From the NCBI GenBank assembly GCA_020632035.1, contig JACKGG010000005.1, forward strand, positions 4,855 to 68,854: DNA of 64,000 nt, read 5' to 3'. Positions 19,441 through 33,882 of this stretch are shown in pieces (positions within the stretch are counted from its first letter, which is position 1; the number at the start of each line of letters is the position of its first letter). The stretch comes from Candidatus Nomurabacteria bacterium (lineage in GTDB: Bacteria > Patescibacteriota > Minisyncoccia > Phycocordibacterales > UBA918). The notes beneath the pieces are model-generated. The model was not told where the DNA came from. It made no database searches and worked only from the letters and a program-made list of their open reading frames with translations. The position numbers and the translations under genes are program-made.

Positions 19441-19466
19441 AAGACCCTTATCCACAGGGTCTTTTT
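19441..19466 (+). terminator. rho-independent terminator
   Basis: AAGACCC-TTATCCACA-GGGTCTT followed by TTTGTAT. Confidence 0.55.
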
Positions 19467-19514
19467 GTATCTATTGACAAATCATGAAAAAGGCATCATA
19501 ATACACGGACAAAT

Positions 19515-20636
19515 ATGAGTCCAAAACTTAAAGGATTAGACATTCTGCAAAAGATATCAATGTCTCTGATGGGTGTGCTGGTGCTTATTACTTTTATTGG
19601 TGCCAATCTACAAGCTCTAACATGGCAGTCTTCAGACTGGCTAGTTTCAACAGTTTTGCCAGCCGTTGTCGTTGAACTTACTAATGAAGAACGTACCGAC
19701 AACTTGGCTCAGCCATTACAGCGTAATGTCACTCTTGACGCTGCAGCAAAAATGAAAGCTCAACACATGGCCAAAAATCAATACTTTGCACACTTTAGTC
19801 CTGATGGTGTTTCACCCTGGTACTGGTTTGATGAAGCTGGTTATGTTTACGCCCACGCTGGAGAAAATCTGGCAATTCACTTCACAGATTCTTCCGAAGT
19901 GGTTGAAGCTTGGATGAACTCTCCAACTCACCGTCAAAACATTGTAAATGGTCTGTATACTGAAATCGGTGTCGGTACTGCTAAAGGTAAATTTGAGGGT
20001 TATGACACTGTATATGTCGTCCAACTTTTTGGTACACCAGCTATACCGCCAGCACCAGTACAGCCAAAATCACTAGCCGTAGCAACTCAACCTCAACCTC
20101 CAGTAGTTGTGCCTGAACCTGAAATAGTACCTGAAATCATCCCCGAAGTAACTGTTGAACCAGCCGAGACAGTCCTTGCTCAGTCTGAAACTGCTGTTTC
20201 TGGACCAGAACCTGAACGTATCTCAGAGGAACTATTTTCTGATAATTCTAAAACTGAACTAACTGAACTAACTGTCGAGCCGGAGCAGACAGTGCCAGAA
20301 AGTATGGCTGTGGCAGAAAGCGAACCTGAGGTCGTAGTCATTGAATCACCAGTTATATCTACTTCATCTGGCCTAGCGGTGGCGCAGATCGATACTTATT
20401 CACCAACTCATGCAGGAGCGACGATTGCTTCAGTGGTAACTCAACCTAATGTTTTATTGCAAATTATCTACTTTGTACTGGCCGTTGCAGTTGTGTTGAT
20501 GCTTGGAACCTCAATCGTACTAGAGGCCCGCCGAATGCGACTCCAGCAAGTTGCTTATGGTCTCTTATTGTTATTTGGTATGGGAGGCTTGTGGTTTATA
20601 AATTCACTGCTCACCACCGGAGCAGTAGTGGTATAA
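19515..20636 (+). CDS. CAP/SCP (PR-1-like, YkwD-type) domain protein with Pro/Glu-rich linker and C-terminal TM anchor
   Basis: The CAP motifs 'HFSPDGVSPWYW...GENLA...WMNSPTHRQNI' are present. A repetitive PEPE/ELTELT linker precedes two C-terminal hydrophobic helices. Confidence 0.7.
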   Translation: MSPKLKGLDILQKISMSLMGVLVLITFIGANLQALTWQSSDWLVSTVLPAVVVELTNEERTDNLAQPLQRNVTLDAAAKMKAQHMAKNQYFAHFSPDGVSPWYWFDEAGYVYAHAGENLAIHFTDSSEVVEAWMNSPTHRQNIVNGLYTEIGVGTAKGKFEGYDTVYVVQLFGTPAIPPAPVQPKSLAVATQPQPPVVVPEPEIVPEIIPEVTVEPAETVLAQSETAVSGPEPERISEELFSDNSKTELTELTVEPEQTVPESMAVAESEPEVVVIESPVISTSSGLAVAQIDTYSPTHAGATIASVVTQPNVLLQIIYFVLAVAVVLMLGTSIVLEARRMRLQQVAYGLLLLFGMGGLWFINSLLTTGAVVV

Positions 20637-20722: not shown

Positions 20723-21169
20723 ATGAAAGAAAAAACCACTACTGTATTATCTGTATTCCCTGCCACACACTCAAAAAAACTTCACTCACAACCACTTTAC
20801 GTTAGTCAACCAGCGGCTGGTTTTCCTTCCCCAGGCGATGATTTAGTAGAAAAAGCCTTGGATCTAAACGATTTACTGGTCGAGAATGAAAGCGCGACAT
20901 TTTTTGTGCGAGTGAGCGGTGATTCTATGGAGGGTGCCAAAATCTTTGATGGAGATATTTTGGTGGTAGACCGCTCCGTGGAAGCCCGGTCCGGACACAT
21001 CGTAGTCGCGGCTGTCTATGGCGAACTAGTAGTTAAACGTCTTTTGAGCAAGGGCAACAAACTTTTTTTAATATCTGAAAACGATCAATATAAACCTATT
21101 CAGATAGATGAAACCGAAGGATGCTTCATCTGGGGCGTAGTAACTGGTAGTGCTAGGGTAATTTTGTAA
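20723..21169 (+). CDS. umuD: UmuD-like S24 peptidase (LexA/UmuD family, no HTH)
   Basis: 148 aa with a candidate autocleavage site A-G in 'QPAAGFPSPGDD', catalytic Ser in 'SGDSMEG' and Lys in 'LVVKRL'. There is no N-terminal DNA-binding domain. Confidence 0.7.
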   Translation: MKEKTTTVLSVFPATHSKKLHSQPLYVSQPAAGFPSPGDDLVEKALDLNDLLVENESATFFVRVSGDSMEGAKIFDGDILVVDRSVEARSGHIVVAAVYGELVVKRLLSKGNKLFLISENDQYKPIQIDETEGCFIWGVVTGSARVIL

Positions 21170-21173
21170 GAGT

Positions 21174-22397
21174 ATGACTGTCCCAGCGTCTACGATGAAT
21201 ATGGTATTAAACAAATCGGCTTTTTTTCTCAACTTTTATATTGCAATTATCCTGTTAGGGTTCTTTTTTGTGCCAGCAGTAGCTCAAGGTGCCAGCCAGG
21301 ATGTGGGTGTCTGGATTCCTTGGTGGACAGAAGAAGCTGGTACAGAAAGTGCTTTAGAGCATATTAAAGATATAGATATAATTTACCCATTTGTGTTTGA
21401 AGTTAATTCAGATGGTTCACTAAAGAATAGGGTAAATTTTAAAGATGATCACTGGGAAGAGCTGTTTGATAAAGCCGACGACGATCGAGTAGACATTATC
21501 CCTACGGTTGCTTGGTTTGATGGTGACGCTATACACAAAATCTTGAGTAGTAAAAGTTCACGCAAGAAACATGTAGATGAGATCGTTAAAATGGTTAATA
21601 AGTATCGCTTTGATGGAGTAAACATCGATTATGAGTCTAAGTTAGGAGAGACTATCGATTATTATTCTGATTTTCTTAAAGAGCTAGAAGACGCGCTTGG
21701 TCGCAAAGATTTGACTTGTACTATTGAAGCTCGTACTCCGCCAGACTCACGTTGGAAGGAAGTGCCTGAGGTGATCAAATATGCCAATGACTACAAAGAA
21801 ATGAACAAGTACTGTGATTGGGTCGAAATAATGGCCTATGACCAACAACGTGCAGATTTGAAGCTAAACGACAAGCGAAAGGGAGTGCCATATATGCCGG
21901 TGGCTGATACTGAGTGGGTAGAAAAGGTGGTTGAACTAGCCTTAGAGGATTTTGATAAAGATAAAGTAATGCTTGGAGTGGCTACTTATGGACGCGCCTG
22001 GGACGTTACTGTTGCTCCAGAATGGTACAGAGACTATAAGCAAGTAGCAGCTATAAATCATCCTAGAATCTTAGAGCTTTCAGAAAAATACAATTCCCCT
22101 ATCGGTCGCACCGAAGGAGGAGAGGCTGTAATAAGCTATTTCCCTGAAGATTCGGTTTGGAAGATATTTAATGCGCTGCCAACACCTGTCGGTACACCAA
22201 AGGGATTCGAAGCAGCTGCAAAAGCGCTCTTAGTGGCTACGTATGCAAAGGTGGAGGTGCCAGTTAGAGTCATTATCTGGAGTGATGCCGAGGCGATAGA
22301 AGAAAAACTAGATCTAGTTAAGAAATACGACCTCAGAGGCGTTGCCGTATTTAAGGTAGATGGTGAAGAAGATTCTAAAATGTGGAAGCTATTTTAA
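21174..22397 (+). CDS. secreted glycoside hydrolase family 18-like protein
   Basis: A signal/anchor helix is followed by the GH18 catalytic motif DxxDxDxE as 'FDGVNIDYE', with Tyr where the usual DxDWE has Trp. The start codon lies 5 nt after the umuD stop. Confidence 0.6.
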   Translation: MTVPASTMNMVLNKSAFFLNFYIAIILLGFFFVPAVAQGASQDVGVWIPWWTEEAGTESALEHIKDIDIIYPFVFEVNSDGSLKNRVNFKDDHWEELFDKADDDRVDIIPTVAWFDGDAIHKILSSKSSRKKHVDEIVKMVNKYRFDGVNIDYESKLGETIDYYSDFLKELEDALGRKDLTCTIEARTPPDSRWKEVPEVIKYANDYKEMNKYCDWVEIMAYDQQRADLKLNDKRKGVPYMPVADTEWVEKVVELALEDFDKDKVMLGVATYGRAWDVTVAPEWYRDYKQVAAINHPRILELSEKYNSPIGRTEGGEAVISYFPEDSVWKIFNALPTPVGTPKGFEAAAKALLVATYAKVEVPVRVIIWSDAEAIEEKLDLVKKYDLRGVAVFKVDGEEDSKMWKLF

Positions 22398-22448
22398 GTA
22401 ACCAAGAAATCAACAATCATTATCTCCTTGTTTTATCTTAGAAAACTT

Positions 22449-22472
22449 TAAGTTCGAATCCTGCCACCGGAG
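22449..22472 (+). repeat. copy A of a 24-27-bp direct-repeat family (AAGTTCGAATCCTGCCACCGGAG)
   Basis: Intergenic, 52 nt after the GH18 stop. It shares AAGTTCGAA..TCC..CACC..GGAG with copies B and C. Confidence 0.5.
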
Positions 22473-22602
22473 AATTTAAGTTTTAGCCGCCAAAGAGGCA
22501 CGAATTTTATTATGTTACTTTGCTTACTATACAACAGGATAGTTATAGAGTATAACTTCCGCATGTTCTTTTTAGTAATTTTCAGACATGAAGGGGTGTG
22601 AA

Positions 22603-23088
22603 ATGCAAAAATTAAACATTAAATACAACTCAGAGGATTGGAGGGGCGCTGTTTTGTCTAATTTGGCCACCACCCCTTTCTCTGTCGCAGGTTTTGACTT
22701 TCTGTCTGTGGAAAGTGCTATTCAGGGCATAAAGTTCCACAGTAAGAACGAAAGAGAGTCGGTATTTAGAATGACCGGCATGGATGCCCTTAAGGCTGGA
22801 CGCCCAATAACAAACTCAATAAGTGAAAGGGTAGAGTCTTTCGTGTACTGGGAAGGGCAGGAGTTTCCTTATAACTCAATGGATCATCGTCTGCTTCTCG
22901 CCATGTTTATTGGCGAGAAAGTCAGACAGAATCCAAACGTACAAGAAGCTCTCTTGGCAACTGACGGGACCTTTATTTACCACGATGTGGGGGAAGAGAA
23001 CCCCAACACTTCTTTGCCGGAGAAATTCTATATCCAAATACTACTTGCTCAAAGAAGCTTGCTGGCTCGACTTAGGAATATTTCCTAG
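22603..23088 (+). CDS. NADAR-like (YbiA-type) domain protein
   Basis: 'FSVAGFDFLSVESAIQGIKF' can be compared with E. coli YbiA 'FSNF...TSEHYFQAQKF', and 'LLATDGTFIYHDVGEENPN' with YbiA 'LLATAPAKLVEHTENDAYWGDG'. The SD AAGGGG sits 7 nt upstream of the ATG at 22603. Confidence 0.45.
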   Translation: MQKLNIKYNSEDWRGAVLSNLATTPFSVAGFDFLSVESAIQGIKFHSKNERESVFRMTGMDALKAGRPITNSISERVESFVYWEGQEFPYNSMDHRLLLAMFIGEKVRQNPNVQEALLATDGTFIYHDVGEENPNTSLPEKFYIQILLAQRSLLARLRNIS

Positions 23089-23112
23089 TTTGCTAATTTC
23101 TCACCAAGATAG

Positions 23113-23145
23113 ACAAGGCTGTCCGTAAGGACGGCCTTTCTTTTT
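23113..23145 (+). terminator. rho-independent terminator
   Basis: GGCTGTCCG-TAA-GGACGGCC followed by TTTCTTTTT. Confidence 0.55.
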
Positions 23146-23183
23146 ATACAAAGTTGACACCTTTAGAGGTGAGTTTGAAACTT

Positions 23184-23224
23184 TGTAGTGTTGTATTGAC
23201 ATTGTCACTACATAACTTATTATA
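23184..23224 (+). promoter_or_regulatory. promoter with overlapping inverted-repeat operator upstream of the relB/dinJ-yafQ pair
   Basis: The inverted repeat TGTAGTG (23184-23190) / CACTACA (23206-23212) brackets -35 TTGACA (23196-23201). The -10-like ATTATA (23219-23224) lies 7 nt before the ATG, implying a near-leaderless transcript. Confidence 0.4.
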
Positions 23225-23231
23225 GATACAT

Positions 23232-23507
23232 ATGAATTCACAAGAAACAATTCAAATTAGGATTGATGCCAAAACTAAGAAAGCAGCTAGGAAGACTCTA
23301 GATGAGCTAGGATTAGATATGTCTAGTGCTGTTAAGCTATTTTTAACTAATGTGGTAAACAGAAAAGGTATACCTTTTGATCTGCGGACTGAGAATGGGT
23401 TCACCTTGGCTCAAGAGCAGGCTTTAATAGCTGAGACAGAGGTAGCAAAGAAGACCGGTAAGAGTTTTAGTGATCTTGATGAACTTTTTTCAGATTTAAA
23501 ATTGTAG
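23232..23507 (+). CDS. relB: RelB/DinJ family antitoxin
   Basis: 91 aa. 'IQIRIDAKTKKAARKTLDELGLDMSSAVKLFL' is a ribbon-helix-helix DinJ/RelB signature. Confidence 0.75.
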   Translation: MNSQETIQIRIDAKTKKAARKTLDELGLDMSSAVKLFLTNVVNRKGIPFDLRTENGFTLAQEQALIAETEVAKKTGKSFSDLDELFSDLKL

Positions 23508-23509
23508 TC

Positions 23510-23791
23510 GTGAAGTATTCAGTACACTACACTACACGCTTTAAAAAATCCCTTAAGCGTGCAAAACAACTGCCTGCTTTCAAGTCAGAAAAACTTAAGG
23601 AGGCTATTTCAATTTTGGCACATGGTAATAGTCTTCCTCCAGAATTTAAAGACCACCGACTTACTGGAAACATGAAAAAGTTTAGAGAGTGTCATTTAGC
23701 TCCGGATATTATTCTTATCTATGAGACAGACGATGGAATTCTAATCCTTACTCTTGTTAATATCGGTAACCATTCTCAGTTGTTTAAATAA
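23510..23791 (+). CDS. yafQ: YafQ/RelE-family mRNA interferase toxin
   Basis: 93 aa with a GTG start 3 nt after the antitoxin stop. 'YTTRFKKSLKRAKQ' and 'KDHRLTGNMKKFRECHLAPDIILIY' match the YafQ/RelE fold signature. Confidence 0.75.
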   Translation: MKYSVHYTTRFKKSLKRAKQLPAFKSEKLKEAISILAHGNSLPPEFKDHRLTGNMKKFRECHLAPDIILIYETDDGILILTLVNIGNHSQLFK

Positions 23792-23792
23792 G

Positions 23793-23819
23793 TTCGAACA
23801 TCCTTCACCCAGCGGAGCC
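23793..23819 (+). repeat. copy B of the direct-repeat family (TTCGAACATCCTTCACCCAGCGGAGCC)
   Basis: It begins 2 nt after the yafQ stop. It differs from copy C at only 2-3 of 27 positions. Confidence 0.55.
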
Positions 23820-23904
23820 AATTGAAATACCCGTATTTTACAGGGATGTTTTTTATTACCTGAAATCGATATCGAACTTTTTGTGACTATTGTAATAAAA
23901 ATAT

Positions 23905-23932
23905 TTGACTTCTTATTTTTAGTATCTATAAT
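23905..23932 (+). promoter_or_regulatory. sigma-70-like promoter (-35 TTGACT, 16-bp spacer, -10 TATAAT)
   Basis: TTGACT is at 23905-23910 and TATAAT at 23927-23932. The predicted TSS at about 23939-23940 coincides with the uORF ATG. Confidence 0.45.
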
Positions 23933-23939
23933 CAAGTAA

Positions 23940-24011
23940 ATGACTAATAAATATCAATTCAACACTTGGTGGACTGCTTGGAGAAACGGGCAGTGGTGTT
24001 TTTGTATTTAA
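23940..24011 (+). CDS. candidate leader peptide MTNKYQFNTWWTAWRNGQWCFCI (23 aa; 4 Trp including a WW pair)
   Basis: The ATG at the predicted TSS indicates a leaderless mRNA. Four TGG codons fall in a 30-nt stretch of an AT-rich genome. GGGCAGT (23988-23994) inside the uORF can pair with ACTGCCC of the downstream terminator's 5' arm. Confidence 0.3.
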   Translation: MTNKYQFNTWWTAWRNGQWCFCI

Positions 24012-24040
24012 TAGTGATTATTCTCCATTAAGTGAAAAAT

Positions 24041-24064
24041 AACTGCCCTCAAGGCAGTTTTTTC
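24041..24064 (+). terminator. intrinsic terminator / attenuator 27 nt upstream of the oxidoreductase start
   Basis: AACTGCC-CTCAA-GGCAGTT followed by TTTTC. The upstream GGGCAGT can form an alternative, mutually exclusive helix with the 5' arm. Confidence 0.5.
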
Positions 24065-24090
24065 TTATAAATCTAAAAATTAATTAAAAT

Positions 24091-25071
24091 ATGAAAACAA
24101 TTAAAAAAACGGACGTGGTAATTATTGGAGCGGGATTCTCAGGGCTTTATTTGGCACATCATTTAGTAAAGGTTGGTAAACGTGATTTCCTCATTGTTGC
24201 GCCCGATATGCAAGCTGTGAGTGACAAGTCATACTTCAATATCAGGTCTAGGGGGGTAAAGCAGACTTCGTTAAAAGAATCTATGAATGTCGCAAGTTAC
24301 GGTATGAGCAACAGACAGTTAGTTAATGTGCTCGTTAACAATATTGATGATGAACTTACATACTTAAGTCATATAACGAAAATGAAACCATCTTTCCTTG
24401 GTGCAATTGTAGCAAGGCCTAAATCGTTGATGAACAAGATACGTAAGGAATCAATCCACAACAGGGTATATGCGGAGGTGTCTTCAGTTAAAAAAAGACA
24501 TGGATACGTAGAAGTCATAACAACTGAAGGTAAGATTCATTGCAAGAAGGTTGTATTTTGCTTCGGTGGTTTAAGAGCGAGATTGTCAGAAAAGTTTGTT
24601 GATGAGAAGGTTAAGAATAACCTTTTTAAGGCTGCTAAAGATGTTGGTTGTGATGTTTTGTATCAAGACCTGGTTATGAAGCATCCTTTCTACTCAAAAG
24701 GTGTCTGCATTCCTAGTGATGATTTGTATAACTTTGATTTCGTTGATGATAAGGAAAAACGTCTTGAGTTAACACATCACTTAGTTAGGGCACATAATGC
24801 CCATCATAGGTTTGATGATATTTGCAAAGAATATCAGAGGACAATAAAGCGCTACGCAATAAATAGAGATAAAATAATTGAATTGGATATAGAGCCTCAT
24901 TTTGTCTTGGGTGGAATAAAGATAAACAGAAGAGGAGAGACAAAGGTAAAAAATGTTTATGCTTTAGGAGAATGCGCTTATGGCATGCATGGCAAAGGTA
25001 GATTAGGAGGTGGTTCCATCGCAGAAATTCTCGTTATGTCTAGAGTGGTTGCAAAACAGATTATTGGTTAG
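24091..25071 (+). CDS. FAD-dependent oxidoreductase (short NadB/FrdA-like flavoprotein)
   Basis: The N-terminal Rossmann motif is 'DVVIIGAGFSGLYLA'. The C-terminal 'ALGECAYGMHGKGRLGGGSIAEILV' resembles the C-terminal FAD-binding motif of L-aspartate oxidase and succinate dehydrogenase flavoproteins. Confidence 0.6.
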   Translation: MKTIKKTDVVIIGAGFSGLYLAHHLVKVGKRDFLIVAPDMQAVSDKSYFNIRSRGVKQTSLKESMNVASYGMSNRQLVNVLVNNIDDELTYLSHITKMKPSFLGAIVARPKSLMNKIRKESIHNRVYAEVSSVKKRHGYVEVITTEGKIHCKKVVFCFGGLRARLSEKFVDEKVKNNLFKAAKDVGCDVLYQDLVMKHPFYSKGVCIPSDDLYNFDFVDDKEKRLELTHHLVRAHNAHHRFDDICKEYQRTIKRYAINRDKIIELDIEPHFVLGGIKINRRGETKVKNVYALGECAYGMHGKGRLGGGSIAEILVMSRVVAKQIIG

Positions 25072-25086
25072 TGCCTACGATATAAG

Positions 25087-25113
25087 TCCGAACATCCACC
25101 ACCCAGCGGAGCC
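25087..25113 (+). repeat. copy C of the direct-repeat family (TCCGAACATCCACCACCCAGCGGAGCC)
   Basis: It lies between the oxidoreductase stop (25071) and the umuC start (25139). Confidence 0.55.
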
Positions 25114-25138
25114 TAAGTTAGCTTGCTATAATACTTTT

Positions 25139-26389
25139 ATGAACCCTTCCTTGATTGGACTTTTGGATTGCAACAATTTTTTTGTATCGTGTGAAAGACT
25201 GTTCCGACCGGATCTAATAGGGAAGCCAGTGGTAGTGCTGTCCAGTAATGATGGTTGTGTAGTAGCTCGATCGAAAGAGATAAAGGACATGGGTATACCA
25301 ATGGGTGTCCCTTACTTTCAGATAAAGGACATTTTAAAAAAAGCTGATGCCGTAACGTTTTCTTCGCACTTTTCTTTGTATCGAGACATCTCAAAAAGAG
25401 TGTTTTCTGTCATGCACAAAGAACTTGGTTTTATTGAGCAATATTCGATAGATGAAGCTTTCTTTACTGTAAGTTCAGGAGCAGAAGAAGTCGCACATAA
25501 CTTAAAAAGAGTGATTGAAAAACAAGTAGGTATCCCAGTTTCAATTGGCTTGGCACAAACAAAAACTCAAGCAAAATATGCTAATTCAATAGCTAAAAAG
25601 GGCACAGGGGTCTGTGCCCTAAGGTTGTCTGATTGGCAGGCTATAGCTAAAGATATTCCCCTAGCTAGTATCTGGGGCGTCGGCGGAAAAACGGAGCTTT
25701 TATATAAAAAACACGGTCTTGAAACCGTTGCGGATTTTATTGTGTTGGATCAATCTAGAGTGGCTAGTTTATTTGGACTGTCTGGCATTAGACTACAACA
25801 AGAATTGATCGGTAATCCAGTGTTTTCGGTTGAACATAAAGTATCTACCCAACAAAGTATTTTGAGCTCAAGATCTTTTTCTGAGACGGCTACAGATTTG
25901 TCTGTTTTGGCTGATGCAGTGGCTTACCATGTGCGTCACGCCACTGCTAATTTGAGATCCTTGGGATTGGAGGCAGGTAAGATCAGAGTCTCGATTCGGC
26001 CGAGTAGACACAGTGATTTTATGCTTCGTGGGGGCTCTAAAGAAGCCTTTATGATTGCTCCTACTGCTGATTCTATATCATTGCTCAGAGTAGCAAACGA
26101 TCTCTTAAAAGATCTGCATGAACCGGGCGTACCCTACAAAAAAGTGGGTGTCGTGTTGTCTCTATTCAGCCCAGTAAACCAAGGACAAACTACGCTTTTT
26201 CCAGACGATACTAAAGTCAAACATGACACGCTGATGTCATTGGTGGACAGCCTTAATACTAAGATAAAAAAAGAATCAGTGTTACTAGGGTCGAGATTGT
26301 TAAGTTCGGCTTGGCAAGCAAAGAGTGAAGTGTGTTCACCGAGCTATACGACTAACTGGTCAGAGGTGGTAATAACTAAAGCTCAATAA
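25139..26389 (+). CDS. umuC: Y-family DNA polymerase, UmuC-like (Pol V catalytic subunit)
   Basis: 'GLLDCNNFFVSCERLFRPDLIGKPVVVLSSNDGCVVARSKEIKDMGI' matches the Y-family N-terminal palm motif. The 417-aa length is UmuC-like. The start was moved to the Met at 25139. Confidence 0.85.
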   Translation: MNPSLIGLLDCNNFFVSCERLFRPDLIGKPVVVLSSNDGCVVARSKEIKDMGIPMGVPYFQIKDILKKADAVTFSSHFSLYRDISKRVFSVMHKELGFIEQYSIDEAFFTVSSGAEEVAHNLKRVIEKQVGIPVSIGLAQTKTQAKYANSIAKKGTGVCALRLSDWQAIAKDIPLASIWGVGGKTELLYKKHGLETVADFIVLDQSRVASLFGLSGIRLQQELIGNPVFSVEHKVSTQQSILSSRSFSETATDLSVLADAVAYHVRHATANLRSLGLEAGKIRVSIRPSRHSDFMLRGGSKEAFMIAPTADSISLLRVANDLLKDLHEPGVPYKKVGVVLSLFSPVNQGQTTLFPDDTKVKHDTLMSLVDSLNTKIKKESVLLGSRLLSSAWQAKSEVCSPSYTTNWSEVVITKAQ

Positions 26390-26695: not shown

Positions 26696-27829
26696 ATGTT
26701 CGCAAAAGCAACAAACGTTGGCTTTGCGCAACGGGTGGTCGCGACACTTGTTGCCTGTTCATTAGTACTTTGGTCAATCGGAGTCTACTCAACAGCACAA
26801 GCAGCCAACCTAACATTATTCAGTGATACTTTGTCAGACTCAGACTTAAGTGTTACATCGTCTCATACTATTGAGTTCGATTTGCCAGCTGGATCACCAG
26901 GTATCCTGGCAGGAGATGACATTGTCATTACATGGGACAGCCAGGACGATGGAGCCGGTGGTCAAGACTTCGGTGGTATTGCCGCTATTGTCGACAACTC
27001 TGATTTAACTTACCAAGTTAACTTGGGCGGTCCGGCAGCACCAAACTATGTTGCATCAGACGGAAACTCACTAACAATTGACGGCATAGTAGCCTCAGCG
27101 GGAGACACTGTAGAAATCGTAGTCGCGGATGGAGTAATTACTAACCCAGCTGTGAGTGGCTCATTCGAAATTGAGGTCGCAATCGCAAACGTTGATAATG
27201 ACCTTGGTCGTACTCGTGTCGCTATTGTTGACAATGTAACTGTGACAGCAATAGTAGATACAAGTTTTGACTTTACTATTACTGGACTAGCCACTTCTTC
27301 TGCAGTTAATGGATCAGTTACTACTGGTTCAACATCTCCAGTTCTAATTGACTTCGGTAAGCTAGTAGCTGATACACCAGAGATTCTTGCTCAAGAACTA
27401 ACTGTTGTAACCAACTCTAGAAACGGGTTCGTAGTAACTGTTAATACTGACGGAGATCTTCAGTCTTCAAACGGCGCTATCATTGATAACTTTGATGAAG
27501 GCACAGATGTGTCTGACACAGGTACAGCCTGGAACTCACCAGCTCCAGACGTCAATGACGAAACCACTTGGGGACACTGGGGAATGACATCTACAGATGG
27601 TGACCTGAACTCACTAGGTGGATACTACACAGGAGAGTTTGGAGCCAATGATTACATTGCTGCTTCAACCACTCCACGAGCAGTGTTCCATCACGATGGT
27701 CCATCTGATGGTCTAACACAGAATATTGGAACAACAACAGTTGGATACCAGATAGAAATCACCTCGCTTCAAGAAGCGGCCGATGACTACACTGCAACTC
27801 TAACTTACGTAGCGACCCCTACTTTCTAA
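26696..27829 (+). CDS. secreted protein with WxL-like C-terminal domain
   Basis: Signal peptide (LVACSLVLWSIGVYSTAQA). The C-terminal end '...DDYTATLTYVATPTF' resembles the terminal LTWxLxDxP motif of WxL surface domains. An internal 'NIG..T' block is shared with the C-termini of the giant ORF and the 61694 gene. Confidence 0.45.
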   Translation: MFAKATNVGFAQRVVATLVACSLVLWSIGVYSTAQAANLTLFSDTLSDSDLSVTSSHTIEFDLPAGSPGILAGDDIVITWDSQDDGAGGQDFGGIAAIVDNSDLTYQVNLGGPAAPNYVASDGNSLTIDGIVASAGDTVEIVVADGVITNPAVSGSFEIEVAIANVDNDLGRTRVAIVDNVTVTAIVDTSFDFTITGLATSSAVNGSVTTGSTSPVLIDFGKLVADTPEILAQELTVVTNSRNGFVVTVNTDGDLQSSNGAIIDNFDEGTDVSDTGTAWNSPAPDVNDETTWGHWGMTSTDGDLNSLGGYYTGEFGANDYIAASTTPRAVFHHDGPSDGLTQNIGTTTVGYQIEITSLQEAADDYTATLTYVATPTF

Positions 27830-27950: not shown

Positions 27951-29039
27951 ATGGCTATTTTACGCTTGTCCAATATTAAACTGAGAGCAGGAGCATTTAT
28001 GCTAGCGCTGATAGCTGTTATAATTTTTTTGATTACTCCTCATCAGGCAGGAGCTCAGCAGGTTGGTGTTAGTATAACTCCTGCTACAATTGAAGAAACT
28101 TTAGATCCTAGTCAAGAACAGACCTACACACTAACAATTGAAAACCTAAACAGTTCAGACCAAAAATACTATTTGTTTACTAAAAATATTTCTGGAGTTG
28201 AAAATGGAGGGGTGCCAATATTTGCAAAAAGTGATCAAGAAGTCACAGGTTATGAACTCACTGATTGGATAGATCTTCCACTAAATGAAGTCGACGTCAG
28301 TGCTGGGGAAGAATATAGTTTTCAGTTTAAGATTTCTGTTCCTGAAAATGCTACGCCGGGCAGCCACTTTGGAGGGATATTTATCTCAGTTGACCCACCA
28401 GAAATAGAGAAAAGTGGAGCAGCTGTGGGTTACCAGGTAGCTAATATAATTAGTATACGGGTGTCAGGTAAGGCCAAAGATGAAGCAACTATAAGACAGT
28501 TTTCGACTACTAAATTTTTTTACGGATCACAGAATGTAGATTTTTTGGCTCGTATAGAAAATACCGGTAACGTATTGATACGCCCAGTTGGTTTATTAGA
28601 AGTTTACAACATGCTGGGTAAAAAAGTTGGTGATGTAGGATTTAATACAGAAAGATCAGCAGTCTTCCCAAATGATACTCGAGAGTTCAATAAGATTTCT
28701 TGGCAAGGAAACTCGATTGGTTTTGGTCGATATGAGGCCCAGTTAAGTGCTAATTACGGTGATTCAGGAGCCAAAAAAAGCATGTATAGTACTGTTTCAT
28801 TTTGGATATTGCCAATGAACATAATTGGCCCGGCGCTTGCGGTTTTGGCAGTCTTGTTCCTAATTATATTTATATTTGTTAGAGTCTATATAAAGCGGTC
28901 ATTGTCTCACATAAACTATGGACGAAGGATTGTAAAAAAACGAAGGAACAACAGCTCTTCAACAACGTTGCTGGTTATAGTGGTTACTCTTACGGTTACG
29001 GCTTTATTCCTCATTGTAATGCTGGCACTTTTTGCATAG
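27951..29039 (+). CDS. DUF916-like cell-surface protein with C-terminal TM anchor and basic tail
   Basis: Signal peptide. The N-terminal beta-rich region 'VGVSITPATIEETLDPSQEQTYTLTIENL' is like DUF916 (CscB-type). A C-terminal TM helix is followed by 'KRRNNSSS' and a second hydrophobic segment. Confidence 0.45.
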   Translation: MAILRLSNIKLRAGAFMLALIAVIIFLITPHQAGAQQVGVSITPATIEETLDPSQEQTYTLTIENLNSSDQKYYLFTKNISGVENGGVPIFAKSDQEVTGYELTDWIDLPLNEVDVSAGEEYSFQFKISVPENATPGSHFGGIFISVDPPEIEKSGAAVGYQVANIISIRVSGKAKDEATIRQFSTTKFFYGSQNVDFLARIENTGNVLIRPVGLLEVYNMLGKKVGDVGFNTERSAVFPNDTREFNKISWQGNSIGFGRYEAQLSANYGDSGAKKSMYSTVSFWILPMNIIGPALAVLAVLFLIIFIFVRVYIKRSLSHINYGRRIVKKRRNNSSSTTLLVIVVTLTVTALFLIVMLALFA

Positions 29040-29059: not shown

Positions 29060-29464
29060 GTGACACACAACTCTACCTATCATAGAATCTTAAGGATTTC
29101 TGCCCTCGTCTGTGCAGTGGTTCTTCTATTTGAGAGTGGATTGTTAAGCCAAACTTCAGCAAAAATGGCTCATGATACTAGTGTGTATCTGGCCAATGCA
29201 ATTGGTATGTCAGCCTCAGTTCAGCCAACAGAGCTAAATACCTATACTGCAGCTTTGACGCAAAAGGAACGTGAGCTTGATTCTAGGGAAGCAGCTTTAA
29301 GAGAAAGAGAAGTTGCAGTAAATCTTTCAACTGATAGTAATTCATCAGATACTGTAACTTATATTTTGGCTAGCATTCTTTTTGTCCTACTAGTGCTTAT
29401 ACTTCTAAACTACACACTTGACTATATAAGAGCAAAAGAAGCGAGAATGTCGCAAACTGTGTAG
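29060..29464 (+). CDS. small bitopic membrane protein with coiled-coil segment
   Basis: 134 aa with N- and C-terminal hydrophobic helices flanking 'KERELDSREAALREREVAV'. Confidence 0.4.
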   Translation: MTHNSTYHRILRISALVCAVVLLFESGLLSQTSAKMAHDTSVYLANAIGMSASVQPTELNTYTAALTQKERELDSREAALREREVAVNLSTDSNSSDTVTYILASILFVLLVLILLNYTLDYIRAKEARMSQTV

Positions 29465-29507: not shown

Positions 29508-31412
29508 ATGGATTTCGTGATAAAACAACGAGCGCTGTTTTATGCTTTGCTCCTAGCTTTTTTAGGAAGTCTATTTTTTGTCAACTCAGATTTTGCTGAA
29601 GCTGTGAATGTTGTTGAGTACAAAGACGTTATATCTGATTCCGGTCCATCAGAGCAATCCAATCATAGTCTATCGTTTGTCTTGAATACTAATCTTTCGC
29701 CTGGAAGTACATTTGAGGTCACTCCACCAGATGGGTTTAGCGTTATTTCTGCTGCCACTTTTGCAGAAAGAAACGTAGAGTTAGTTATCGATGGTATACC
29801 AAGAGTAGCCAGTGATGCGCTTGCTCCTGGAGTCGATATGGTAGAAATTACTCCAGGTTCACCTGGCTTTATTAAGTACACCCTAGCGCCAGATGCTTCT
29901 GTGAGTTCTGGCAGTCAAATCGAATTCAAGATCGGTAACCATACTTCTAATTCTCAGCAAATAGGAACAGCCTACAGTTCGACAACTGGTACGACCACTG
30001 TACCAGCAGACATAGAGCCAATTATTAACTCATCAGATTTAGGGAAACACGATGTCCAGTTAGAGATATATGACGGTAGCTTAGTTGCCAACGCTGACTT
30101 TGTAGTTTTCTTAGTTGAAAAAGTGCAAATGCCAGGTATTGATACTACTGAAGAAATTCCTCCATTTCGTTTTAATCCGGCTCCAACTAGTACAGTAGGA
30201 GGAACTACGCTCAGTGTAGAAATATCTCTGGAAACAGATGAGTTTGCAATTTGTCGGTATAGCACTAGTCCAGATGTTGCTTACGTTGCAATGACCAATA
30301 CTTTCAGTAATACTGGTTTAATCTACCACTCAACTGTGGTGACGGTCACTCCAAGTACAGTCGCTTCATATTATGTAAGATGTATCGATGATGAAGGCAA
30401 CTTCAACATAGACGACTTCTTAATACAGTTTACTGTTAATGATACTCCAACCGGGACTTCAAACGAAGAGGGTGACGTAGACGGAGATGGTACTGGTACT
30501 GGGAATTCTGGTAGTGGGGATGGTTCTGGTGGAGGAGGTACATCTGGTGCTTCAGATGGTGTAGAACCATTGGCAGGGGGTAGTACTGGTTCTGGTGGTT
30601 CTGGCGGTGGCGGGGGAGGCGGCTCAGGCGGTAGTTCTGGTAGTTCAGGAGGAGGAGGTTTTGAGAGTACTGATGCTCCATACAGAAGTGGTGACGGTCG
30701 GGTAGAAATCTCTGGCTACGCTTATCCAAACAGTTCGGTCACGATTTTGGTTGACGGTAACATTTTTTCGACAGTGAAAGCAAATAGCTCTGGCTCTTAC
30801 TCTGAGACTCTAGATGAAATTGCTAGAGGTGTATACACCTTTGGTGTGTACGCCGACGATTCTAATAGAGTACGGTCTTCTACTTTTAGCACCTCGTTCA
30901 CTGTCACAGGAGCGCGGACCTCTGCTTTGAGTAACATCAATGTCTCACCATCAATCTCAGTAGACCCAGACCCGGTTAATCCTGGCCAGACGCTAACCTT
31001 GTCTGGTTACGCATTACCAAATTCAGTTGTCACTATAGAAAACGGTCGACTAAATCGAGCTAGTAGTCAAACATTGTCTGCAAATTCTGATTCAAGTGGT
31101 AAGTGGAGTACAATCATACCAACCAATGGATTTACAGTTGATACATATCAAGTTAGAGCCAAATCACAGCAGGACGGAGGCCAAACAACTCAGTTTTCGA
31201 AGTATACTTTTTATGGAGTCGGCAAGTCAGCTGATGTCCCACTAAACGCCGACTTAAATAGAGATGGTAAGGTTAACCTTATAGACTTTTCTATCTTGCT
31301 ATTCTGGTGGGGTGGAACTGGTGGTGACTCAGACCCGCCTGCCGATATAAACCTAGATGGTAACGTGAGTCTAACCGACTTCTCGATCCTTCTCTTCAAC
31401 TGGACTGGATAA
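29508..31412 (+). CDS. secreted multi-domain protein with Gly/Ser-rich linker, Ig-like repeats and C-terminal dockerin
   Basis: Signal peptide. An about 60-aa Gly/Ser linker sits near 30470-30670. The C-terminal tandem calcium-binding repeats 'ADLNRDGKVNLIDFSILL' and 'ADINLDGNVSLTDFSILL' (about 31231-31409) form a type-I dockerin signature. Confidence 0.65.
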   Translation: MDFVIKQRALFYALLLAFLGSLFFVNSDFAEAVNVVEYKDVISDSGPSEQSNHSLSFVLNTNLSPGSTFEVTPPDGFSVISAATFAERNVELVIDGIPRVASDALAPGVDMVEITPGSPGFIKYTLAPDASVSSGSQIEFKIGNHTSNSQQIGTAYSSTTGTTTVPADIEPIINSSDLGKHDVQLEIYDGSLVANADFVVFLVEKVQMPGIDTTEEIPPFRFNPAPTSTVGGTTLSVEISLETDEFAICRYSTSPDVAYVAMTNTFSNTGLIYHSTVVTVTPSTVASYYVRCIDDEGNFNIDDFLIQFTVNDTPTGTSNEEGDVDGDGTGTGNSGSGDGSGGGGTSGASDGVEPLAGGSTGSGGSGGGGGGGSGGSSGSSGGGGFESTDAPYRSGDGRVEISGYAYPNSSVTILVDGNIFSTVKANSSGSYSETLDEIARGVYTFGVYADDSNRVRSSTFSTSFTVTGARTSALSNINVSPSISVDPDPVNPGQTLTLSGYALPNSVVTIENGRLNRASSQTLSANSDSSGKWSTIIPTNGFTVDTYQVRAKSQQDGGQTTQFSKYTFYGVGKSADVPLNADLNRDGKVNLIDFSILLFWWGGTGGDSDPPADINLDGNVSLTDFSILLFNWTG

Positions 31413-31436
31413 AACCTGACTAGTGTCAGGTTTTAT
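31412..31436 (+). terminator. rho-independent terminator
   Basis: AAACCTGAC-TAGT-GTCAGGTTT followed by TAT. Its 3' half is the first bases of the tandem repeat unit. Confidence 0.55.
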
Positions 31437-31708
31437 CTGGTGCCGACGAGAGTCGGCAATCACCGTTGTGAGGCTTAATGCCGAACAGGTGATAGGAGGG
31501 CACCAACTCTGTCCTCGGCACTTACGCTGCGAATTGGCTATGTTCGTCCAGATTGACTAGTGTCAGGTTTTATCTGGTGCCGACGAGAGTCGGCAATCAC
31601 CGTTGTGAGGCTTAATGCCGAACAGGTGATAGGAGGGCACCAACTCTGTCCTCGGCACTTACGCTGCGAATTGGCTATGTTCGTCCAGATTGACTAGTGT
31701 CAGGTTTT
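31418..31708 (+). repeat. 137-bp GC-rich unit in exact tandem, 2.1 copies
   Basis: Unit starts are at 31418, 31555 and 31692, and the third copy ends after about 17 bp. The first two full units look identical by eye. The unit has no ORF longer than 6 codons and contains several internal helices (see findings). Confidence 0.8.
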
Positions 31709-31733
31709 ATCATAATTTTAGTTCTGCGTAATC

Positions 31734-31748
31734 TGTGGGTAACCCACA
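31734..31748 (+). promoter_or_regulatory. perfect palindrome TGTGGGTAACCCACA upstream of hsp20
   Basis: The 6-bp arms are TGTGGG/CCCACA. It lies 21 nt upstream of the TATAAT at 31769-31774. Confidence 0.3.
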
Positions 31749-31782
31749 ATTAAACTTAAGCTTCTAAGTATAATGTTAAGGT

Positions 31783-32265
31783 ATGTCGTTCTTGCAAAGA
31801 TTGAAAGGTCGGGGAGTTAGGAGTGGCGAAGCTTCTCTTTTGTCAGACGCCGAAGAAACGGCGGTAGATAAAGTAGCTCAATTGCACGTTGATGTTTTTC
31901 AAACTGAACGCATGATTGTTGTGTATGCACAATCAGCTGGAGCTGATATGAATGACGTTCATGTCTCGATTGAAGGAGATGCAGATATTGTTCTTATCGA
32001 AGGTAAAAGAATCAGGCCAGAATATATTGTTTTCCCTAAAAAGAAAGTCAGTGGATCTTTCGTGGCAGAAGAATGTATTTGGGGAGATTTTTACCGAAGG
32101 ATTATCTTGCCTGAAAGTGTAAATATAGATAAAGCTGAAGCAAAAATAAAAAATGGTGTTCTGATCCTCGTCCTGCCACTTTTGAAGCCAAGTGAAAAAG
32201 AAAAAGTTCAGTTAAAAGTTATGGGAGGTAAAGGCATTACTAAGCCTAGGCAGAAGCCAAATTAG
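31783..32265 (+). CDS. Hsp20/alpha-crystallin family small heat-shock protein
   Basis: 160 aa. The alpha-crystallin domain motifs are 'VHVSIEGDADIVLIEGKR' and 'GSFVAEECIWGDFYRRIILPESVNIDKAEAKIKNGVLILVLPL'. Confidence 0.8.
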   Translation: MSFLQRLKGRGVRSGEASLLSDAEETAVDKVAQLHVDVFQTERMIVVYAQSAGADMNDVHVSIEGDADIVLIEGKRIRPEYIVFPKKKVSGSFVAEECIWGDFYRRIILPESVNIDKAEAKIKNGVLILVLPLLKPSEKEKVQLKVMGGKGITKPRQKPN

Positions 32266-32286
32266 TTTGAATCAGATCTTGTTCCT

Positions 32287-33816
32287 ATGTTGTACCTTTT
32301 AAATAAAATTTCAAAACTAACACTAGCAGTCGGATTTACTGTAGCTTTGTTTCTGTCTCTATTTTCTTATACATATGCAGCGGATTTATCAATTTCTCCA
32401 AGCACAGGCTCTTACACTGTAGGTCAAACTTTCACTGCTACCATACGAGCAATCCCAAATGGTGACAGTGTAAACGCAGTTGAGGCAACTTTATCTTACA
32501 ACCCTGCCGTTTTGTCGGTAGTGAGTGTTAGTAAGACTGGTTCAGCTTTCTCGCTTTGGACTACAGAACCAACGTTTTCAAACTCGGCTGGCACTATTCA
32601 GTTCGGAGGTGGTAGTCCGACACCATTTACATCTTCCTCAAACTTGTTGAGCGTCACTTTCAGAACAGTTGCAGAAGGTACAGGATCAATAAAGTTTACA
32701 GAAGCATCAGTTTTAGCCGCAGATGGTAGAGGAACTGATGTATATAAAGCAGCAACAGACGGATCTTTTACGGTTACAGCCGGCACCGCTCCAACACCAA
32801 CTCCAACACCAACTCCTACTCCGACAGACACTGCAGAAGAATCAGATAATGAAGAAGCAATTATCTTTGGTGATCCTCCAAGGCAACCAGAAGTAGGTTC
32901 CCAGACTTTCCTTGATCCCGAAATTTGGTACAACCGAACAGATGGTGTCTTTACTTGGACCCTACCGTTTGATGTTAGTGCCGTAGCAGTGGAAATCTCA
33001 GATGACCCTAATAACATTCCTCAAGACCATGAAGATTCGATTATTGATCCACCGGTTGAAGAATTTTCTGTCAGTAAAGAAACTGTTAAGGATGGAGTAC
33101 AGTACATCAGTGTTAACTTTCAAAACCAAGTCGGTTGGGGAGCAGTTACAAACAGAAAAGTTCAAATCGATACAACTCCACCCGAACCTTTTGCAATAAA
33201 TGTTCAGGCTGGAAATTCGCCAACCTCATTCCCGCTACTAAAGTTTGAAGCTACTGACAAAACTTCAGGTATCGAGTATTACGACATGACGATTGCTGAT
33301 AAGGAACCATTACGGGTTACACCAGATGAGGCTAGATTGGGTTACTTACTAAAAGAACTTGAAGATGGTACTTATACTGTCAAAGTCATTGCTACTGACA
33401 GGGCAGGAAACGTTAGAGAAAGTAGTGTGGCTGTCCTTATAACTGCTGGTTGGATTAAGCCAGTTGAAAATCTAGACGAAGGTTCATTCTGGGACTTTAT
33501 CACAGCTGTCAACCTGTTTATTTTCTTCCTAGTTGTTATAATCTTATTGCAGATAGTATACTTCTGGTATGAGCATAAACGTCTAAAAGAAAAAGATGAA
33601 AAGTTGAGAAGAGAGACTCGAGAAATTCAAGATCAGATGGAAAAGATATTCTCTGCTTTAAGGGACGAAATATACGACCAGATAAACACAATAACAAAAA
33701 GGAAAAGAATGTCAGTCAAAGAAAAGGAGGCGGTTGAACAACTTACACAAGCGCTTGAAGTGTCAGAGACCTTGATTGAGAAGGAAATCAATGACGTAAA
33801 GACAATTTTGAAGTAA
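32287..33816 (+). CDS. membrane-anchored cohesin-domain protein (scaffoldin-like) with TP-repeat linker and cytoplasmic coiled-coil tail
   Basis: Signal peptide. The cohesin-like beta-sandwich is 'ADLSISPSTGSYTVGQTFTATIRAIPNGDSVNAVEATLSYNPAVLSVVSV...IKFTEASVLAADG' (about 32380-32785). A (TP)n linker follows. The TM helix is 'FITAVNLFIFFLVVIILLQIVYFWY', and a charged coiled coil (KEKDEKLRRETREIQDQMEK...) follows it. Confidence 0.6.
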   Translation: MLYLLNKISKLTLAVGFTVALFLSLFSYTYAADLSISPSTGSYTVGQTFTATIRAIPNGDSVNAVEATLSYNPAVLSVVSVSKTGSAFSLWTTEPTFSNSAGTIQFGGGSPTPFTSSSNLLSVTFRTVAEGTGSIKFTEASVLAADGRGTDVYKAATDGSFTVTAGTAPTPTPTPTPTPTDTAEESDNEEAIIFGDPPRQPEVGSQTFLDPEIWYNRTDGVFTWTLPFDVSAVAVEISDDPNNIPQDHEDSIIDPPVEEFSVSKETVKDGVQYISVNFQNQVGWGAVTNRKVQIDTTPPEPFAINVQAGNSPTSFPLLKFEATDKTSGIEYYDMTIADKEPLRVTPDEARLGYLLKELEDGTYTVKVIATDRAGNVRESSVAVLITAGWIKPVENLDEGSFWDFITAVNLFIFFLVVIILLQIVYFWYEHKRLKEKDEKLRRETREIQDQMEKIFSALRDEIYDQINTITKRKRMSVKEKEAVEQLTQALEVSETLIEKEINDVKTILK

Positions 33817-33848
33817 AATAAAGAAGTAATCCACATATAATTAACGAT

Positions 33849-33882
33849 ACCGCGCCACTCACATCGAGTGGCGCGGTATACT
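33849..33882 (+). terminator. strong GC hairpin (ACCGCGCCACTC-ACAT-CGAGTGGCGCGGT), possible terminator
   Basis: A perfect 12-bp stem. The downstream tract is TATACTTATAA, which is T/A-rich but not a clean U-run. Confidence 0.4.

Follow-up and report, generated by a model that had tools for sequence, protein, structure and literature searches.

A cohesin–dockerin pair as candidate membrane tether of a Pam/WxL-type surface fibre in Patescibacteria

What does a bacterium without a recognisable cellulosome hold together with a cohesin and a dockerin? The question is raised by 64,000 nucleotides of an ultra-small Candidatus Nomurabacteria bacterium (GCA_020632035.1, contig JACKGG010000005.1, positions 4,855–68,854 of the forward strand; below, the window), in which a gene for a 634-residue surface protein ending in a dockerin (29508–31412) is followed, after a tandem repeat and hsp20, by a gene for a 509-residue membrane protein beginning with a cohesin (32287–33816). 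An earlier note, made from the sequence alone, had described the two as a minimal cellulosome-style docking system. The docking pair finds support in the one-to-one occurrence of dockerin and cohesin across related loci, but the pair appears to be part of a larger conserved pilus or surface-fibre operon. On balance we favour, without great confidence, the reading that these genes form a conserved Patescibacteria operon for a Pam/WxL-type surface fibre, with the cohesin–dockerin joint as its membrane tether. The dockerin is carried by a protein resembling a pilin subunit; hence, the pair most likely fastens a pilus to the membrane and is unrelated to cellulose digestion. Patescibacteria, or candidate phyla radiation (CPR) bacteria, represent a large part of the diversity of bacteria; they live attached to host cells, and very little is known of their surface machinery. 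The Pam pilus was reported only in 2026, and its fixation to the cell remains a prediction.

The dockerin and cohesin modules

The 634-residue protein, identical to NCBI H6785_03680 (Candidatus Nomurabacteria bacterium), is divided as follows (aa, amino acids; ORF, open reading frame; HMM, hidden Markov model; Ig, immunoglobulin; pLDDT, predicted local distance difference test).

29508–31412, + strand: whole gene, dockerin-bearing putative pilin paralogue, 634 aa (ORF, Pfam, hhalign, AlphaFold)
29601–30122, + strand: pilin-like N-terminal beta-sandwich domain, aa 32–205 (hhalign, HMM, AlphaFold pLDDT about 90 or higher)
30123–30209, + strand: conserved linker, aa 206–234 (...DTTEEIPPFRFNPAPTSTVGGT...), candidate donor strand (alignment with the linker between pilin N-domain and C-domain)
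30210–30437, + strand: small five-strand beta domain, aa 235–310, with two invariant cysteines (secondary structure, pLDDT about 70–80)
30438–30677, + strand: Gly/Ser-rich flexible linker, aa 311–390 (pLDDT below 40; glycine positions conserved)
30678–31232, + strand: two Ig-like domains, aa 391–575 (modelled beta domains at aa 394–467 and 484–571)
31233–31409, + strand: C-terminal type I dockerin, aa 576–634, two calcium-loop/helix segments (Pfam PF00404, PDB sequence matches)

The dockerin signature that the earlier note had seen at the end of this protein is borne out by the Pfam model PF00404 (Dockerin_1), which scores 28.2 bits over aa 581–628 (gathering cut-off 22.9). The calcium-binding repeats ADLNRDGKVNLIDFSILL and ADINLDGNVSLTDFSILL are both found in the ORF and hold the loops D582-L-N-R-D-G-K-V-N-L-I-D593 and D613-I-N-L-D-G-N-V-S-L-T-D624, the starts of which are 31 residues apart and both of which have Asp or Asn at positions 1, 3, 5 and 12, the pattern by which type I dockerins are recognised. 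In a family alignment of 56 sequences D582, D586, D593, D613, N615 and D624 are invariant, N584 and D617 are kept in at least 90%, and with 46% invariant columns the dockerin is the most conserved domain of the protein. When the C-terminal 62 residues are compared with PDB sequences, type I dockerins come out best (2y3n_B, E 2.3e-4; 1daq, 1.4e-3) and calmodulin-type EF-hands rank below them (E 0.008–0.04). A six-frame motif scan found a single dockerin pair of calcium loops in the whole 64 kb, and the pair is therefore not part of a background of such motifs. PF00404 is also recorded in 116 of the 120 listed relatives that were checked for Pfam domains, the same number being checked for the 509-residue protein.

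The second protein is modelled as a signal peptide, a beta-sandwich, a linker, two beta domains (about aa 200–385), a transmembrane helix and a cytoplasmic helical hairpin, in an AlphaFold model that was built on a 61-sequence alignment and has an overall pLDDT of 83 (FnIII, fibronectin type III).

32287–33816, + strand: whole gene, cohesin-bearing type I membrane anchor, 509 aa (ORF, Pfam, AlphaFold, Foldseek)
32380–32781, + strand: cohesin domain, aa 32–165, at the membrane-distal end (Pfam PF00963, AlphaFold, Foldseek)
32782–32871, + strand: (TP)6/acidic disordered linker, aa 166–195 (pLDDT below 50 over aa 174–191)
32872–33450, + strand: stalk of two FnIII/Ig-like domains, aa 196–388 (AlphaFold, Pfam Big_13, Foldseek)
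33505–33573, + strand: transmembrane helix, about aa 407–429 (hydrophobic stretch followed by KRLKEK)
33577–33813, + strand: cytoplasmic helical-hairpin tail, aa 431–509 (conservation, model)

The cohesin model PF00963 scores 34.6 bits over aa 42–163 (cut-off 24.1) and is recorded in 107 of the 120 listed relatives. The region (about aa 32–164) is modelled as a beta-sandwich at a pLDDT of about 90, and Foldseek places it with solved cohesins: the top match is 6kgf_C (E 4.8e-10, TM score 0.74, root-mean-square deviation 2.6 A, probability 1.00), followed by 4dh2 (OlpC), 1g1k, 2vn6 and the Archaeoglobus fulgidus cohesin 2xdh, several of them solved together with dockerins. The type I cohesins among the matches reach TM scores of 0.70–0.77 and share the nine-stranded jelly roll with it. 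The cohesin that the earlier note had proposed is thus confirmed in both sequence profile and modelled fold, and the reading frames, the strings quoted from them, the (TP)6 linker, the transmembrane helix and the helical tail are present as it had described them. In the stalk, Big_13 scores 29.4 bits (cut-off 27), and Foldseek finds tandem FnIII structures. The transmembrane segment is the start of a continuous modelled helix (aa 407–470).

The cytoplasmic tail, rightly picked out in the earlier note, is the most conserved module of the anchor, with 47% invariant columns that include the run Q448–E461, and it is recognisable in relatives at 33–38% identity; this conservation fits an intracellular partner. 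The loop between the two cytoplasmic helices (33694–33711, aa 470–475) reads TKRKRMS, is nearly invariant (family consensus KRKRLS, with R472 and R474 invariant) and, being basic and containing a serine, could be a candidate modification or binding site.

The putative pilin-type operon and its conservation

The genes upstream of the dockerin gene, together with hsp20, set the pair in its context.

26696–27829, + strand: 377-aa secreted protein, distant Pam-type pilin with N-domain, linker and C-domain (NCBIfam, synteny)
27951–29039, + strand: 362-aa WxLIP/DUF916-type protein, candidate membrane-anchored pilin chaperone (Pfam WxLIP_PGBD, architecture)
29060–29464, + strand: small membrane protein of 134 aa (hydrophobic segment at the N-terminus, middle part resembling a coiled coil, C-terminal transmembrane segment)
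31783–32265, + strand: hsp20, small heat-shock protein, 160 aa (Pfam HSP20, 39.2 bits)
33847–33879, no strand assigned: strong GC-rich hairpin with a 14–15-bp stem, between the anchor gene and a giant ORF (terminator scan)

Three genes upstream of the dockerin gene, and syntenic in related loci, lies the gene for the 377-aa protein. The NCBIfam model NF058581 (CPR_Pam_pilin_C) matches its aa 218–377 over model positions 6–148 of 148 with E 1.1e-3 and 19 bits, against a curated cut-off of 55 bits, and at E<=0.01 it matches 32 of 43 orthologues, at best with E 2.4e-7 and with the full model covered. Pam pilins begin with a beta-sandwich, continue with a linker that serves as the donated strand and end in an open Ig-like acceptor domain, and their linker and C-domain are more conserved than the N-domain (bioRxiv 10.64898/2026.03.03.709456). 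The linker and C-domain of the 377-aa family are likewise more conserved than its N-domain. A PDB profile search with this family returned nothing significant and no sequence of a Pam pilin. As the scores lie below the curated cut-off, we do not count the 377-aa protein as a certified Pam pilin and treat it as a distant relative, judged by its sequence profile.

The earlier note had taken the dockerin-bearing protein for an Ig-repeat cargo. Instead, it appears to be a paralogue of the 377-aa protein: hhalign aligns pilin aa 32–267 with aa 28–305 of the dockerin-protein family (probability 98.95%, E 1e-17), the pilin-family HMM matches the 634-aa ORF at E 1.5e-13, and on these profile comparisons the first approximately 280 residues of the dockerin protein are homologous to the pilin-like protein. 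The pair therefore belongs to a larger fibre operon and is not a stand-alone mini-cellulosome. CPR_Pam_pilin_C is not found in any member of the dockerin-protein family (0/56), and a 75-aa five-strand domain, in which C249 and C292 are invariant, takes the place of the pilin acceptor C-domain of about 160 aa. Between this domain and the N-domain, the linker of aa 206–234 has 31% invariant columns compared with 13% in the N-domain, although aa 208–234 are disordered in the monomer model (pLDDT below 50), which points to an intermolecular strand and, by analogy with the Pam linker, to a putative donor role. The motifs YAYPNSSVTI and YALPNSVVTI lie within the Ig-like region, the homologues of which carry PF17936 and PF19077 matches. 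Neither Pfam nor NCBIfam detects a glycoside hydrolase in the protein, as the earlier note had also found, and Foldseek of the whole model returns only strings of Ig-like domains and no enzyme, among them the archaeal S-layer glycoprotein 7ptp (E 1.7e-8), Bap and SiiE. The family is held together at 62–74% identity, which is unusually high for a surface protein.

The 362-aa protein has a signal peptide, beta domains and a C-terminal transmembrane segment. WxLIP_PGBD scores 34.1 bits in it (cut-off 27.3) and is found in 43 of 45 orthologues, fn3_5 covers the second beta domain in 24 of the 45, and the family profile matches the solved EfmWxLIP1 (9i25/9i1y) with E 6.4e-5. WxLIPs consist of two Ig-like domains and a transmembrane helix, the prediction being that they insert a beta-hairpin into the partner protein (PMC10599100). 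By its architecture, the 362-aa protein is a candidate pilin chaperone resembling PamC and PamD. Neither the 377-aa nor the 634-aa protein matches the Pfam WxL domain at E<=1. The 134-aa protein has no significant Pfam or NCBIfam family match; complete orthologues in 57 related loci make it a conserved member of the cluster.

For the survey of conservation, species-representative genomes were scanned for the anchor; 110 loci were found, 80 of which were fetched for comparison, the modules being surveyed within +-10 kb of the anchor locus in each genome and the synteny counts being taken from the 62, 70 or 75 loci that were informative for the feature concerned. The anchor is thus present in at least 110 species-level Patescibacteria genomes, and both proteins have hundreds of full-length relatives at 60–80% identity in Patescibacteria metagenome-assembled genomes. 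The fetched loci bear Patescibacteria labels except for one Legionellaceae and a few without a lineage name; we take the Legionellaceae label as a bin-labelling error, which probably applies to the 'Saccharibacteria' labels too. In 61 of 62 loci the dockerin gene is found upstream of the anchor gene, and in the close family each +-10 kb contains exactly one cohesin ORF (83 loci) and one dockerin ORF (69 loci), a 1:1 pairing that supports a docking pair. Directly 5' of the anchor gene, hsp20 is found in 74 of 75 loci with a gap of 22–25 bp (22 bp in the window), and it is probably co-transcribed with the cohesin gene, the hairpin at 33847–33879 being the likely end of their transcription unit. 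Hence, hsp20 is a constant upstream partner of the anchor gene and not the mere spacer for which it had been taken. Conservation peaks in the presumed interaction modules, that is, in the dockerin (46% invariant columns), the candidate donor linker (31%), the cohesin (31%) and the tail (47%).

The linkage survives in more distant settings. In one complete genome (L003), the dockerin gene and hsp20 are separated by an inserted FG-GAP gene (1,956 aa), at the site of a 137-bp repeat of the window, and the linkage is kept. A second locus (L088), with an anchor of only 38% identity and a gap of 1 bp between hsp20 and the next gene, groups together a pilin-like protein with a dockerin, a small protein with a cohesin only, hsp20, the cohesin anchor and a further cohesin protein. 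An exhaustive profile search with the anchor gave 11,874 representatives at E<=1e-3, of which 1,655 reached E<=1e-30; among them, full-length proteins, longer ones with an extra domain and proteins of 345–370 aa without cohesin can be distinguished, the last matching exactly the stalk, transmembrane helix and tail. Such a cohesin-less anchor is encoded in locus L085, directly downstream of hsp20, together with a Pam-type pilin (E 1e-108) and a 248-aa cohesin–dockerin protein, and in locus L090 it follows a SpaA-type pilin, a sortase and a CAP protein. In changing combinations, pilins, cohesin and dockerin modules and the anchor are thus encoded together, usually with hsp20.

Three observations on these divergent loci may be added. 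The 248-aa protein (L085:2788–3534), encoded beside the Pam-type pilin gene, has a cohesin (E 8e-17) and a C-terminal dockerin and would be an adaptor-scaffoldin-like module. In L090 (5448–11053) and L091, the cohesin-less member of the anchor family comes immediately after the SpaA-type pilin, sortase and CAP protein genes, a hint that fibres of more than one kind may use the anchor module. In L089, a stand-alone 103-aa protein (2884–3195) consists of the transmembrane helix and conserved tail only (E 7.6e-13), and two cohesin anchors are encoded in tandem upstream of it, the first with a short tail only.

Proposed tethering of a fibre and rival explanations

We suggest the following mechanism. 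The 377-aa pilin, the 634-aa protein and the 509-aa anchor would be exported by Sec, and the membrane-anchored WxLIP-like protein would chaperone the pilin, which would polymerise by donor-strand exchange as in Pam pili. The 634-aa protein, with a pilin N-domain and linker and without the acceptor C-domain, would donate its strand to the last pilin; as it lacks an acceptor, it could act as a strand donor only and would come to lie at the cell-proximal end of the fibre. From there, its Gly-rich linker, two Ig domains and C-terminal dockerin would reach the cohesin, which the two FnIII-like domains of the anchor would hold away from the membrane, and calcium-dependent cohesin–dockerin binding would secure the fibre to the cell. 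On the other side of the membrane, the nearly invariant helical hairpin of the anchor may engage an intracellular partner, for which the co-transcribed Hsp20 is the obvious candidate.

The closest known system is the Pam pilus, in which PamC and PamD are PapD-like chaperones with a transmembrane helix at the C-terminus and PamR, a transmembrane-anchored protein of tandem FnIII domains, is the proposed terminator and anchor, inserting its own N-terminal strand into the last pilin (10.64898/2026.03.03.709456). As there, a single operon of a CPR bacterium encodes a secreted pilin-like protein (approximately 38 kDa) with a C-domain that matches the Pam pilin model and the same conservation pattern of linker and C-domain, a two-Ig-domain protein with a transmembrane segment at its C-terminus, and a transmembrane-anchored protein with two FnIII-like domains. 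Compared by description only, the 362-aa WxLIP-like protein has the same two-Ig-plus-transmembrane design as PamC and PamD, and the anchor has the stalk-plus-transmembrane design of PamR, exactly so in its cohesin-less relatives. Unlike in Pam, the pilin scores below the cut-off, the lineage (Nomurabacteria/Paceibacteria-type) lies outside the classes stressed in the preprint, the task of PamR is apparently split between a donor-only pilin with a dockerin and an anchor with a cohesin, and hsp20 and the conserved cytoplasmic tail are present, neither of which is described there.

Several points weigh against a Pam/WxL-type fibre tethered in this way. All Pam-pilin matches of the 377-aa family, that of the window protein included, lie below the curated cut-off, and the Pam preprint places Pam pilins mainly in Saccharimonadia and Microgenomatia and mentions neither cohesin nor dockerin. 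AlphaFold left aa 578–634 of the 634-aa protein at pLDDT 27–38 with no helices and no two-helix dockerin fold, so that the dockerin is identified from sequence profiles only. The candidate donor segment is proline-rich, and the 75-aa second domain might be a reduced acceptor domain. The cohesin-less anchor in L090 has no hsp20 beside it, and the synteny comes mostly from one family-level clade, in which shared ancestry can explain part of it, given that synteny extends to the housekeeping genes upstream.

The cohesin and dockerin evidence applies equally to an arrangement without a polymer, in which the 634-aa protein would be a monomeric Ig-like adhesin or an S-layer-like wall protein of pilin descent that is hung on the anchor by the same joint. 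The best Foldseek matches of its model (7ptp, Bap and SiiE) would suit such a protein, an identity of 62–74% is what is expected of a structural envelope component, and the acceptor domain was found in none of the 56 family members. However, the Foldseek matches are generic multi-Ig alignments with TM scores of 0.13–0.15, the N-domain and linker are homologous to the Pam-type pilin of the same operon, beside a chaperone-like gene, and the conservation of a linker that is disordered in the monomer speaks for a strand shared between molecules. We regard simple surface display as possible and yet doubtful. That the two modules are not partners at all is distinctly unlikely; in this case, the dockerin would bind another cohesin or a ligand on the host cell, the cohesin another dockerin, and their adjacency would reflect the common regulation of envelope genes. 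Networks of this kind exist, as divergent lineages have two to three cohesin proteins and a cohesin-plus-dockerin adaptor per locus, the survey spans +-10 kb per genome, and the dockerin keeps an identity of approximately 75%, as estimated by eye, in a lineage in which that of the anchor is 38% over cohesin and stalk. Yet cohesin modules have no established function other than dockerin binding, each locus of the close family has exactly one cohesin and one dockerin, and their linkage outlasts both the FG-GAP insertion in L003 and the large divergence of L088. In favour of separate partners, an essential dockerin protein without a reported cohesin is present in a Saccharibacterium (PMC10633639).

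Two further explanations can be given little room. The two modules, together with a GH18 gene 8 kb upstream (21174–22397), might be read as a scaffoldin with docked enzymes, in a minimal cellulosome or another complex that degrades glycans, but there is one cohesin only and no carbohydrate-binding module (CBM), the only dockerin in the 64 kb is carried by a non-enzymatic protein, and the GH18 protein has no dockerin. This reading was rejected for lack of enzymes, CBM and multiple cohesins, and we consider it very improbable, in agreement with the expectation of the earlier note that the system is not cellulolytic. That the repeats are generic EF-hand or RTX-like calcium loops and the 'cohesin' an unrelated beta-sandwich is hardly credible: the want of a confident AlphaFold dockerin fold and the calmodulin-derived chains among the weak PDB matches (E 0.008–0.04) would allow it, whereas both Pfam models score above their gathering cut-offs, the top PDB sequence matches are dockerins, the top Foldseek matches of the cohesin are solved cohesins at probability 1.00, and the two Pfam domains recur in 116 and 107 of the 120 listed homologues, respectively.

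Non-cellulosomal cohesin–dockerin pairs are an established category, represented by A. fulgidus, the pair of which binds functionally, and by the glycosidase complexes of Clostridium perfringens. With these, the present pair has in common the absence of a cellulosome and non-cellulolytic proteins, and the cohesins of both organisms (2xdh and 2vo8) are among the Foldseek matches of the anchor cohesin. It differs in that the cohesin is part of a type I membrane protein with a conserved tail, in place of an SLH (S-layer homology), sortase-anchored or soluble protein, and in that the dockerin is carried by a pilin paralogue in a pilus-type operon, 1:1 over at least 110 species. Anchoring scaffoldins (OlpC, OlpA and SdbA of Clostridium thermocellum; ScaE of Ruminococcus flavefaciens) also have an N-terminal cohesin on an envelope stalk that captures a C-terminal dockerin, and OlpC (4dh2) is one of the top structural matches of the anchor cohesin. 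In contrast to these, a transmembrane helix and cytoplasmic hairpin take the place of SLH repeats or LPXTG, and there is a single cohesin with neither enzymes nor CBM. The WxL/Csc clusters of Firmicutes (WxL plus WxLIP, that is, DUF916-DUF3324-transmembrane helix) similarly contain a DUF916/WxLIP_PGBD protein with a C-terminal transmembrane helix beside secreted partners. Here, however, no Pfam WxL domain was detected in the partners and no LPXTG protein is present, which places the operon outside these clusters, and the WxL/Csc clusters themselves have no cohesin or dockerin. Lastly, in the established Pap biology the chaperone–usher terminator PapH ends the fibre at its cell-proximal side as a donor-only, non-accepting subunit, a role that we propose for the 634-aa protein. 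Unlike in the Pap system, there is no usher and no outer membrane, and a separate cohesin–dockerin joint would lead to a protein of the cytoplasmic membrane. The analogy to chaperone–usher terminators is drawn in the Pam preprint as well (10.64898/2026.03.03.709456).

A further-reaching proposal is that the cohesin–dockerin joint, the transmembrane anchor with its hairpin tail and the small heat-shock protein form a transmembrane coupling device, which would connect an extracellular pilus for host contact, by mechanical means or through signalling, with a partner in the cytoplasm of bacteria without outer membrane, usher or known retraction motors. This would be a new form of pilus anchoring and load sensing, and the module of transmembrane helix and tail, which occurs with other heads, headless and as the stand-alone 103-aa protein, would be a general CPR adaptor between envelope and cytoplasm. 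We offer this as speculation and rate it as rather unlikely.

In the literature searched, no description was found of a dockerin on a pilin paralogue, of a cohesin on a PamR-like transmembrane anchor with a conserved tail, of the hsp20 partnership or of a Pam-like kit in a Nomurabacteria/Paceibacteria-type lineage, and searches of the literature on Patescibacteria, Parcubacteria and CPR brought up no account of this cohesin/dockerin pair. Public annotation already names some relatives 'cohesin domain-containing' or 'dockerin type I domain-containing'. If the fibre-tether reading is true, Pam-type fibres extend into Paceibacteria-type lineages, and their anchoring becomes concrete and testable, by a joint that belongs to an interaction class of high affinity and mechanical strength. 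The conserved tail and a dedicated small heat-shock protein would then form the intracellular side of the anchor, and the locus would be a clear natural case of cohesin–dockerin modules serving organelle anchoring, not enzyme assembly. The two modules are small (about 135 and 60 residues), and the pair can therefore be tested in vitro without culturing the organism.

The intergenic repeat and neighbouring genes

Between the dockerin gene and hsp20 lies a perfect 137-bp tandem repeat (31417–31711, 2.2 copies, 100% identity), each unit of which opens with the hairpin AAAACCTGAC-TAGT-GTCAGGTTTT; the repeat starts with this hairpin just past the stop codon of the dockerin gene. Of the terminator and tandem repeat that the earlier note had placed here, the repeat is real, but its hairpin was not scored by the terminator scan. 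The repeat has no Rfam match and no counterpart in the 80 related loci; thus, it arose either by very recent duplication or as an artefact of the assembly, and as a genome-specific element it was rejected as an RNA or regulatory element of the system.

Directly 3' of the anchor gene, a giant ORF (33932–57382, 7,816 aa) encodes an N-terminal membrane anchor followed by repeated DUF2341 and pentaxin/LamG-like modules, inside which no cohesin, dockerin or pilin modules were found. The giant DUF2341 gene is syntenic downstream of the anchor in 67 of 70 related loci, where it encodes 5,500–7,800 aa. It is followed (57294–61591) by genes for a 563-aa FnIII protein, an ABC ATPase and a MacB/FtsX-type permease, which in locus L080 come close behind the anchor. 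As called, the FnIII ORF shares 89 bp with the end of the giant ORF, and the C-terminal part of its product (about aa 459–533) shows weak similarity to domain 2 of the dockerin protein (E 2.5e-4 for a search of window size). Next comes a second secreted-looking protein of 634 aa (61694–63598) without a family match, which was rejected as a paralogue of the dockerin protein, no paralogy being found. A truncated ORF at the edge of the window (63678–63998) has a weak match to the N-terminus of the WxLIP-like family (E 0.0064), and 61694–63998 may be the start of a second fibre-type cluster.

Just 5' of the operon (20723–26389) lie genes for a LexA-like S24 peptidase, the GH18 glycosidase, a phage Gp30.3-domain protein, an FAD oxidoreductase and a UmuC/DinB-type (IMS) polymerase, of which the LexA-like, GH18 and IMS genes are syntenic in related loci. 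In the same genomes the IMS polymerase is less conserved (40–49% identity) than the anchor (57–69%) and hsp20 (65–88%). Approximately 10 kb upstream, 14467–20636 encodes a 1,651-aa SpaA-domain/peptidoglycan (PG)-binding protein and a CAP-domain protein. A CNNM/CBS (CorB-like) transporter gene (10578–11543) is located approximately 15 kb upstream of the pilin gene; in relatives of M. amalyticus, pam operons have a CorB-like gene as a conserved neighbour (10.64898/2026.03.03.709456).

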